A stretch of 951 nt of DNA from Escherichia coli (lineage in GTDB: Bacteria > Pseudomonadota > Gammaproteobacteria > Enterobacterales > Enterobacteriaceae): NCBI RefSeq assembly GCF_003334765.1, contig NZ_QOWT01000093.1; one strand, written 5' to 3'. Numbering within the stretch: the first letter of the stretch is position 1; every line of letters begins with the position of its first letter. Below are positions 1 to 951 of the stretch, piece by piece. The notes under the pieces were generated by a model, which saw only the letters and a list, made by a program, of their open reading frames with translations, was not told the DNA's origin and did not search any database. A program made the position numbers and the translations under genes.

Positions 1-222
1 CCCCTGCAGCGGGTCATAATAGCGGTGGCGGTTGTAATACAGGCCGGACTCCTCATCATACTGCTGCCCCGGCAGGCGGATAAGCTGCTGCAGCTGATGC
101 GGGTTCTCTTCATTCAGCAGGTTGCCCCATTCATCGTATTCTGCGCACCATTCTGTTGCCCCTTCCGTGCTGATAAGCGCCAGCGGCAGGCCGCGATGGT
201 CGCAGTGGTACAGGTGGATTTT
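1..222 (-). other. RHS repeat-associated core domain (C-terminal end of the Rhs core, immediately before the expected autoproteolytic DPxGL junction)
   Basis: The translation [74 protein letters not shown] has the characteristic shape Y-x-x-D-H-x-G-x-P ... W ... Y-D-x-W-G ... Y-D-x-E-x-G-L-Y-Y-N-R-x-R-Y-Y-D-P-x-x-G-R of the conserved Rhs C-terminal core domain. The domain is cut by the window edge. Confidence 0.75.
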
Positions 223-951
223 TCGCGCCGGCGTGTACACCGGGTCCATCTGGTTTTGCATCTGCTCCACGGTCAGGCCGCACGATGCCAGCCAGCGGCG
301 GCTTTCCTCACTCACCCGGTCAGCCAGGATTTCACTTTCCAGCCGGTCGAGCATCTGCACCAGCACCGGCGGGAACACCACACTGCCACCGTCTTCGCCG
401 CCGGACTGCTGAAGCGCATCCGCCAGGCTGCGGCGCTGCGTTTTCGCCAGCTCACCGGTGGCGGTTTCAACTCTGATGAGTGGCGTGAAGCTCCCCGGCT
501 GATAAATCGTCTGGATGCGGGTTCTGTCGTTCTGTATTGTGGTCAGCCGGTCGCCGTCCCAGCCGTACCAGGTCACTTGCGGTTTCCGTGACAGCGACAT
601 CCAGCCCGTCAGGTCCCGTTCACGCCGCCACACCCGTTTTGCCACCCTGCGGCCCAGCGGGTCGTAAAGATAGCGACTTTCGACCAGCGGCTCTTCATAT
701 TGTGTCCGCGTGTAGTGCACCAGCCGGTGCTGACTGTCGTAATGGTACCGGTGAGTCCGCTCATCATCCGTGCGGATAACCCCTTCCGGGATGAGGTCGG
801 TTTTCTCTGTCAGCCTGCCGTGACGGTCATACCGGTAAAGATAGTGCGCGTCACGGGCGATACGGTTATCCGGCCACATGCTGAGGGTGCTGTCCGGGTG
901 CAGCTCCGGGTCGGGCAGGCGGTTACCTGCCGGGTCTGTGGCATACGGGAT
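1..951 (-). CDS. Rhs family protein, conserved core region (YD-repeat polymorphic toxin, RhsA/B/C-like); partial at both ends, internal fragment
   Basis: Reverse-complement translation in the frame whose codons end at position 1 gives 317 codons without a stop. The product contains YD-repeat motifs ([48 protein letters not shown]) and the Rhs signature [35 protein letters not shown]...[22 protein letters not shown], which I recognise from enterobacterial Rhs cores. GC-rich codon usage fits Rhs cores. No start or stop codon lies in the window, so the true gene ends are outside it. Confidence 0.93.
538..843 (-). other. Block of YD (RHS) repeat motifs within the Rhs core (protein-level repeats, beta-shell region)
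   Basis: Four spaced motifs of the form aromatic-x-Y-D-x-x-G/H-R-L on the minus-strand translation: [12 protein letters not shown] (808..843), [12 protein letters not shown] (718..753), [12 protein letters not shown] (640..675), [12 protein letters not shown] (538..573). This matches the YD-repeat consensus GxxxRYxYDxxGRL. Confidence 0.75.

Follow-up and report, generated by a model that had tools for sequence, protein, structure and literature searches.

The Rhs elements go back to Lin, Capage and Hill (1984, as cited in PMC3150448), and rhs-CT/rhsI modules of the orphan kind are widespread (PMC3150448). Described examples of such orphans are ybfO and yibJ in Escherichia coli K-12 and STM0292 in Salmonella LT2 (PMC3150448, PMC3967940). 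In Salmonella LT2, the main gene and its orphan share a 522-bp arm, 95% identical, that recombines after duplication of the locus and gives rise to a full-length Rhs protein with the orphan toxin (PMC3967940).

We studied a stretch of 951 nt from an E. coli assembly (GCF_003334765.1, contig NZ_QOWT01000093.1); this whole stretch of DNA is called the window throughout. It is a piece of an E. coli Rhs core gene of the RhsA/B/C subfamily and as such represents ordinary, already known biology. Since the Rhs core is repeated, the window would very probably correspond to a whole short contig, namely a collapsed-repeat edge of a short-read assembly graph, as judged from the sequence at its two ends (see below). 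What the analysis adds is the identification of the window itself as the collapsed segment, with boundaries stated to the base and with no core-tip link inside; all that was observed agrees with known Rhs biology and with the usual behaviour of assemblies.

Its closest counterpart is the core of K-12 RhsA, RhsB and RhsC. The window is 99.7% identical to rhsA over all of its 951 nt and in the same frame, and its segment is found in several copies in the same genomes; it contains YD repeats, and the Rhs-associated core domain begins in it. It differs in holding only 317 of the ~1,400 residues: the N-terminal region and the greater part of the shell fall outside it, as do the DPxGL motif, the toxin tip and the immunity gene. 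Among the orphan modules, the ybfO type has a core-homology arm that takes in the whole window, and the right end of the window is the exact start of this arm; the orphan's tip is absent from the window. At 1,043 bp, this E. coli arm has about double the length of the Salmonella arm shown to recombine (522 bp), and its identity is slightly higher (97% against 95%). Like the collapsed-repeat contigs formed by rRNA operons and IS elements, it is a short contig inside a repeat, ends at the first and last shared bases, has been reproduced independently and is overlapped by its neighbours over k-mer lengths. In contrast to those cases, the Rhs copies are 97.4-99.7% identical to each other and not identical, so small differences must be merged.

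The translated window is also similar to the C-terminal part of the YD-repeat cocoons of solved Rhs proteins, i.e., Tse5 (8cp6), the Salmonella bongori Rhs core (8qjb-d) and Photorhabdus Rhs1 (7q97), with E values from 4e-25 to 3e-14. From its family membership and these solved relatives, which are distant ones, the product is predicted to form the last quarter of a YD-repeat shell enclosing a C-terminal toxin, the encapsulation role being the one expected for the family.

Coding content of the window

Translation showed that minus-strand frame 1 is open over 317 of the 317 codons (1..951, minus strand) and runs off both ends. This partial Rhs core coding sequence corresponds to gene coordinates 2695-3645 of K-12 rhsA, the numbering used for all end positions below, and covers the C-terminal quarter of the YD-repeat shell. 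Annotated rhsA and rhsB genes matched it at 99.7-99.8% nucleotide identity. The NCBIfam profile RHS_core NF041261 matched the translation with E=6.9e-206 over profile positions 913-1229 of 1261; the whole-protein score was 686.7 bits against an equivalog cut-off of 2000, which is out of reach because only a quarter of the protein, and hence of the profile, is present, and the score per position is in line with that of a full member.

Smaller features of the family were located in the same frame. The highest-scoring YD repeat lies at 703..771 (minus strand, residues 61-83), where TIGR01643 gave 31.4 bits and passed its cut-off of 15.8; matches to the Pfam RHS_repeat model were weak. The conserved 'RHS protein' segment, matched by Pfam PF03527 over positions 1-37 of its 38 (E=5.2e-15), is at 109..219 (minus strand, residues 245-281). 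Of the Rhs repeat-associated core domain, which has 76 positions, the first 42 are at 4..138 (minus strand, residues 272-316), for which TIGR03696 scored 37.6 bits, above its cut-off of 32.5. The translation ends with YYDPLQG, and the next residues in K-12 rhsA are RYITQDPIGL, preceding the variable toxin tip; the PxxxxDPxGL self-cleavage motif, which K-12 rhsA has as ITQDPIGL, is thus expected to start about 5 codons past window base 1, outside the window. Neither a toxin tip nor an immunity gene is present within it. The original prediction had called for the link between this core and its downstream tip and immunity gene to be verified; as both elements are absent from the window, it offers no core-tip link on which such a check could be made.

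The plus strand presented short or antisense ORFs only. The one at 25-591 (188 aa) matched no NCBIfam family and was taken as an antisense artefact of GC-rich coding DNA. The sole Rfam match, to a trypanosomatid snoRNA, reached 21.5 bits against a gathering score of 47 and was set aside as a chance match.

Copies in complete genomes

A megablast search of 5,426 complete E. coli genomes matched the window in 3,889 of them, at 19,884 places, all but three of which were chromosomal (the three being plasmid-borne). The matching genomes held a median of 5 places each (maximum 14, lowest 1), and each of the best-matching 30 held 5-7. These counts agree with the statement, made from the sequence beforehand, that several near-identical multi-kb Rhs cores occur per genome, and so do the whole cores of K-12, which are 97-99% identical over ~3.7 kb (rhsA vs rhsB, 99.2%; rhsA vs rhsC, 97.0%). 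The best identity among the 19,884 places was 99.8%; a 100% match to the window was found at none of them. The remaining 1,537 of the 5,426 genomes (~28%) were without a megablast-level match to the core segment; cores of the RhsA/B/C type are therefore common in E. coli but not present in every genome. In the same survey, 11 records matched at 60-90% identity only.

The five rhs loci of MG1655 were retrieved and compared with the window copy by copy. Mapping the window to the complete genome had been proposed as the way to count paralogues, and in MG1655 such mapping returned four full-length copies (97.6-99.7% identity), one partial copy and two diverged ones. The full-length copies are those of rhsA (3 mismatches), rhsB (12), ybfO, the orphan downstream of rhsC (13), and rhsC itself (23). 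The partial copy belongs to the orphan yibJ: window positions 1..385 (minus strand) are common to this type of orphan, which lies downstream of rhsA, at 95% identity with one gap (blastn against the K-12 rhsA locus, 7198-7581), the homology of yibJ to rhsA spanning coordinates 3261-3731. The two diverged copies, rhsD and rhsE, are 78% identical to the window each. The source genome would likewise carry several copies, as implied by the ends of the window at points of paralogue divergence and by the recurrence of the same segment in independent assemblies (see below).

Both ends of the window are repeat boundaries

For a repeat, a de Bruijn graph yields an edge that extends from the first to the last base held in common by the copies, and the two ends of the window fit this pattern. 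Base 951 corresponds to rhsA coordinate 2695, the first base of the ybfO-type orphan homology to the core: in the comparison of ybfO with rhsA the last mismatch is at 2694 and identity begins at 2695, and the sequence upstream of ybfO is an unrelated, AT-rich spacer. The orphan boundary is at 2695 in strain 30EVA1 as well. Base 951 is thus a graph branch point, where the sequence upstream of the core meets that upstream of the orphan. The ybfB/orphan junction, probed with 240 nt centred on it, was found in 2,650 of the 5,426 complete genomes, the remainder matching solely from the boundary base onward, and therefore the branch point is common in E. coli.

At the other end, base 1 corresponds to rhsA coordinate 3645, one base short of the first copy-specific site near the core/tip junction. 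Base-level comparison placed the first copy-specific sites after the window at 3646 in the ybfO-type orphans (K-12 and 30EVA1) and at 3648 in rhsB and rhsC; at site 3646, the rhsC gene of 30EVA1 differs from its own orphan.

Both ends accordingly coincide with divergence points (the 2695 boundary and site 3646), and the whole window lies inside the repeat. An assembler edge would begin at the first base common with the orphan and would stop before the copies diverge towards their different tips. The original prediction had warned of collapse and chimerism in short-read assemblies. Its first part is borne out by a product found only on contigs below 2 kb and by identical end points that recur (see below); its second part, chimerism, is no more than a possibility. 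Beyond being at risk of collapse, the window appears, with high confidence from the position of its boundaries, to be the collapsed segment itself.

Within K-12 and within 30EVA1, the copies differ from one another at 12-30 sites inside the window; therefore a single 951-nt edge needs either the merging of small bubbles or a strain whose copies are more alike. The length of 951 nt equals 317 x 3, and the window could in principle have arisen from a 953-nt contig trimmed to the called gene; against this origin, the longest NCBI contig carrying the product is 951 nt.

Recurrence of the segment in other assemblies

The exact 317-aa product was found on 22 metagenome contigs, all shorter than 2 kb. 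Ten of these 22 were listed, from independent ENA and Logan assemblies, and each of the ten is exactly 953 nt long; 10 of 10 start at the gene-sense start of the window (2695) and end at 3647, one base before the variant at 3648. In NCBI the exact product is entered as 'RHS repeat domain-containing protein, partial [Escherichia coli]' (among others, WP_133296633.1) and comes from 7 contigs, the longest of 951 nt; thus the window is almost certainly a whole contig of a draft assembly. The 90%-identity cluster of the product has 169 members, and the 15 listed were largely 'partial' Rhs proteins of E. coli and Shigella, encoded on contigs ~0.9-1.7 kb long.

Three further contigs are neighbouring graph edges, overlapping at the boundaries by 55, 33 and 116 nt, which are k-mer lengths. 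The metagenome contig L020 starts with the 55-mer ending at 3647 and continues through a tip and immunity gene to an orphan starting at 2695; the metagenome contig L024 ends 33 nt into the orphan; and L017, which represents the core further upstream (coordinates 85-2810), has 116 nt in common with the window. The last of these (JAETOQ010000140.1, 1-2726) is filed under an 'Oscillospiraceae bacterium' MAG and is 98.6% identical to the K-12 rhsA/rhsB core; the scaffold is apparently a repeat contig of E. coli that ended up in the wrong, unrelated bin. A contig of coverage 0.8 in a Frankia tisae draft (NZ_JANEZT010000833.1, 1-433) is 100% identical to the K-12 rhsA/rhsB core and is likely trace E. 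coli contamination.

The tip-proximal part of the window occurs twice on another contig (ERZ777306 NODE-18270, 2,967 nt), at 45-428 and 2339-2967, ~2.3 kb apart. The two copies are the arm of a yibJ-type orphan and the main core, and the contig breaks within the core at window base 629.

Among 100,044 species-representative genomes, the terminal 30-mer of the window was found on no Escherichia or Shigella contig, though it is exact in K-12 rhsA, rhsB and ybfO; the two hits obtained were both contaminants. Metagenome contigs scanned with an 81-nt probe gave longer contigs only. The missing match may reflect a representative with a variant, a representative without a copy, or a gap in the collection.

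Allele composition and alternative explanations

The window differs from K-12 rhsA at only three positions (159, 167 and 178), at which it has the alleles of rhsB and ybfO; elsewhere the two share an identical run of 773 nt. The patch at 159-178 bears the signature of a short conversion tract. K-12 rhsA has 159T and 178G in common with rhsC and a private 167T, all within 20 nt, and the tract looks like one in K-12 rhsA rather than in the window. A clean two-parent mosaic of K-12 copies was rejected, as the patch mismatches rhsB at 175 and ybfO at 174, and no simple chimera emerged from the comparison.

Thirty-five sites in the window vary among the four K-12 copies. At these the window holds the majority allele in 22 cases, a tied allele in 10 and a minority, rhsA-only allele in 3, and no private allele was seen in the window, each of its bases occurring in at least one K-12 copy. 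Differences between the window and the ten 953-nt contigs fall at 12 sites, and 12 of the 12 are among the 35 paralogue-variable ones (P=8e-19). As every base of the window is an allele of some K-12 copy, gene conversion in the cell and a consensus made by the assembler fit the data equally.

It is conceivable, though doubtful, that the sequence of the window exists in no genome and is a chimera, i.e., a consensus of several paralogous cores made by the assembler. The lack of an exact match in the 5,426 finished genomes leans slightly towards some chimerism. The same explanation gains from the composition just described (K-12 alleles throughout, with only 3 minority ones), from the 12-30 internal differences between the copies of real genomes, which must be merged to yield a single edge, and from the independent assemblies, which differ from the window at paralogue-variable sites only. 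However, the window is only 2 or 3 differences away from real copies, which leans away from chimerism: only 2 changes, both synonymous, separate it from a real core (rhsB locus of STK39-3-E), and 3 changes in one cluster separate it from K-12 rhsA, with which it has the long identical run in common. In addition, at least 7 isolate contigs and 22 metagenome contigs carry the 317-aa product, and gene conversion in vivo yields the same pattern of alleles.

Gene conversion may also have a wider part in this pattern. We tentatively consider that, in place of an assembler effect, continuing in vivo conversion might circulate a fixed pool of alleles throughout E. coli, among all of its Rhs cores and the orphan arm, and might keep the ~1-kb recombination arm intact for tip switching.

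Across the window, the core at the rhsB locus of STK39-3-E (L001, 7410-11645) resembles K-12 rhsA, with 5 differences, more than it does K-12 rhsB, yet over its whole length this core is only 97.8% identical to that of K-12 rhsA. By this comparison, the haplotype of a core therefore does not follow its place on the chromosome, as mosaic exchange between the copies would lead one to expect.

That the window derives specifically from a ybfO-type orphan copy, and not from a full-length rhs gene, is very improbable. Its start is the exact start of the orphan homology and the orphan frame is open across it, but its haplotype has fewer mismatches with rhsA (3) and rhsB (12) than with the ybfO of K-12 (13) or the orphan of 30EVA1 (14), and a contig from the orphan only would run on into the unique AT-rich spacer upstream.

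We give still less credit to a segment that is single-copy in its own genome, on a contig kept short by low coverage or by strain mixtures with different tips at one locus: the lowest count in the survey was indeed 1 place per genome, and many of the short contigs are metagenomic, where strain variation also makes branches, but the orphan boundary at the window end requires a second, truncated copy next to non-core DNA and it adjoins a full-length rhs gene in the genomes examined, the product is also on the 7 NCBI E. coli contigs (longest 951 nt), the best-matching 30 complete genomes all have 5-7 places, and it is very unlikely that chance placed both ends at points of divergence.

Use of the window and the recombination arm

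Read as a collapsed-repeat contig, the window would serve as a stand-in for several Rhs loci when a draft genome is annotated, which is of practical and not of conceptual value. The toxin tip or immunity gene that follows should not be deduced from it, and its single bases should not be read as the haplotype of one locus. The break points at 2695 and 3645/3647 would explain many of the 'partial' Rhs proteins of ~317 residues in databases for E. coli and Shigella, and also the mis-binning of such fragments into unrelated genomes.

The arm shared by rhsC and ybfO is 1,043 nt long and 97% identical (rhsA coordinates 2695-3737), and the window is wholly inside it. It thus lies entirely in a stretch of ~1 kb shared by an rhs gene of full length and by the promoter-less ybfO-type orphan core-tip-immunity module downstream. 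This stretch may act as a homology arm, in which recombination or gene conversion would swap toxin tips and homogenise the copies. Recombination with orphan modules, which the original prediction had proposed for such copies, finds its place in this arm, and by analogy with the Salmonella case (PMC3967940) the E. coli rhsC/ybfO arm may be used in the same manner.

Downstream of ybfC, the rhsC locus of 30EVA1 (L026, 9436-10818) presented further genes annotated as immunity-like, for an NTF2-fold immunity protein and a DUF6258 protein, and a 74-nt remnant of an Rhs core, which suggests a longer array of displaced tips than that of K-12.
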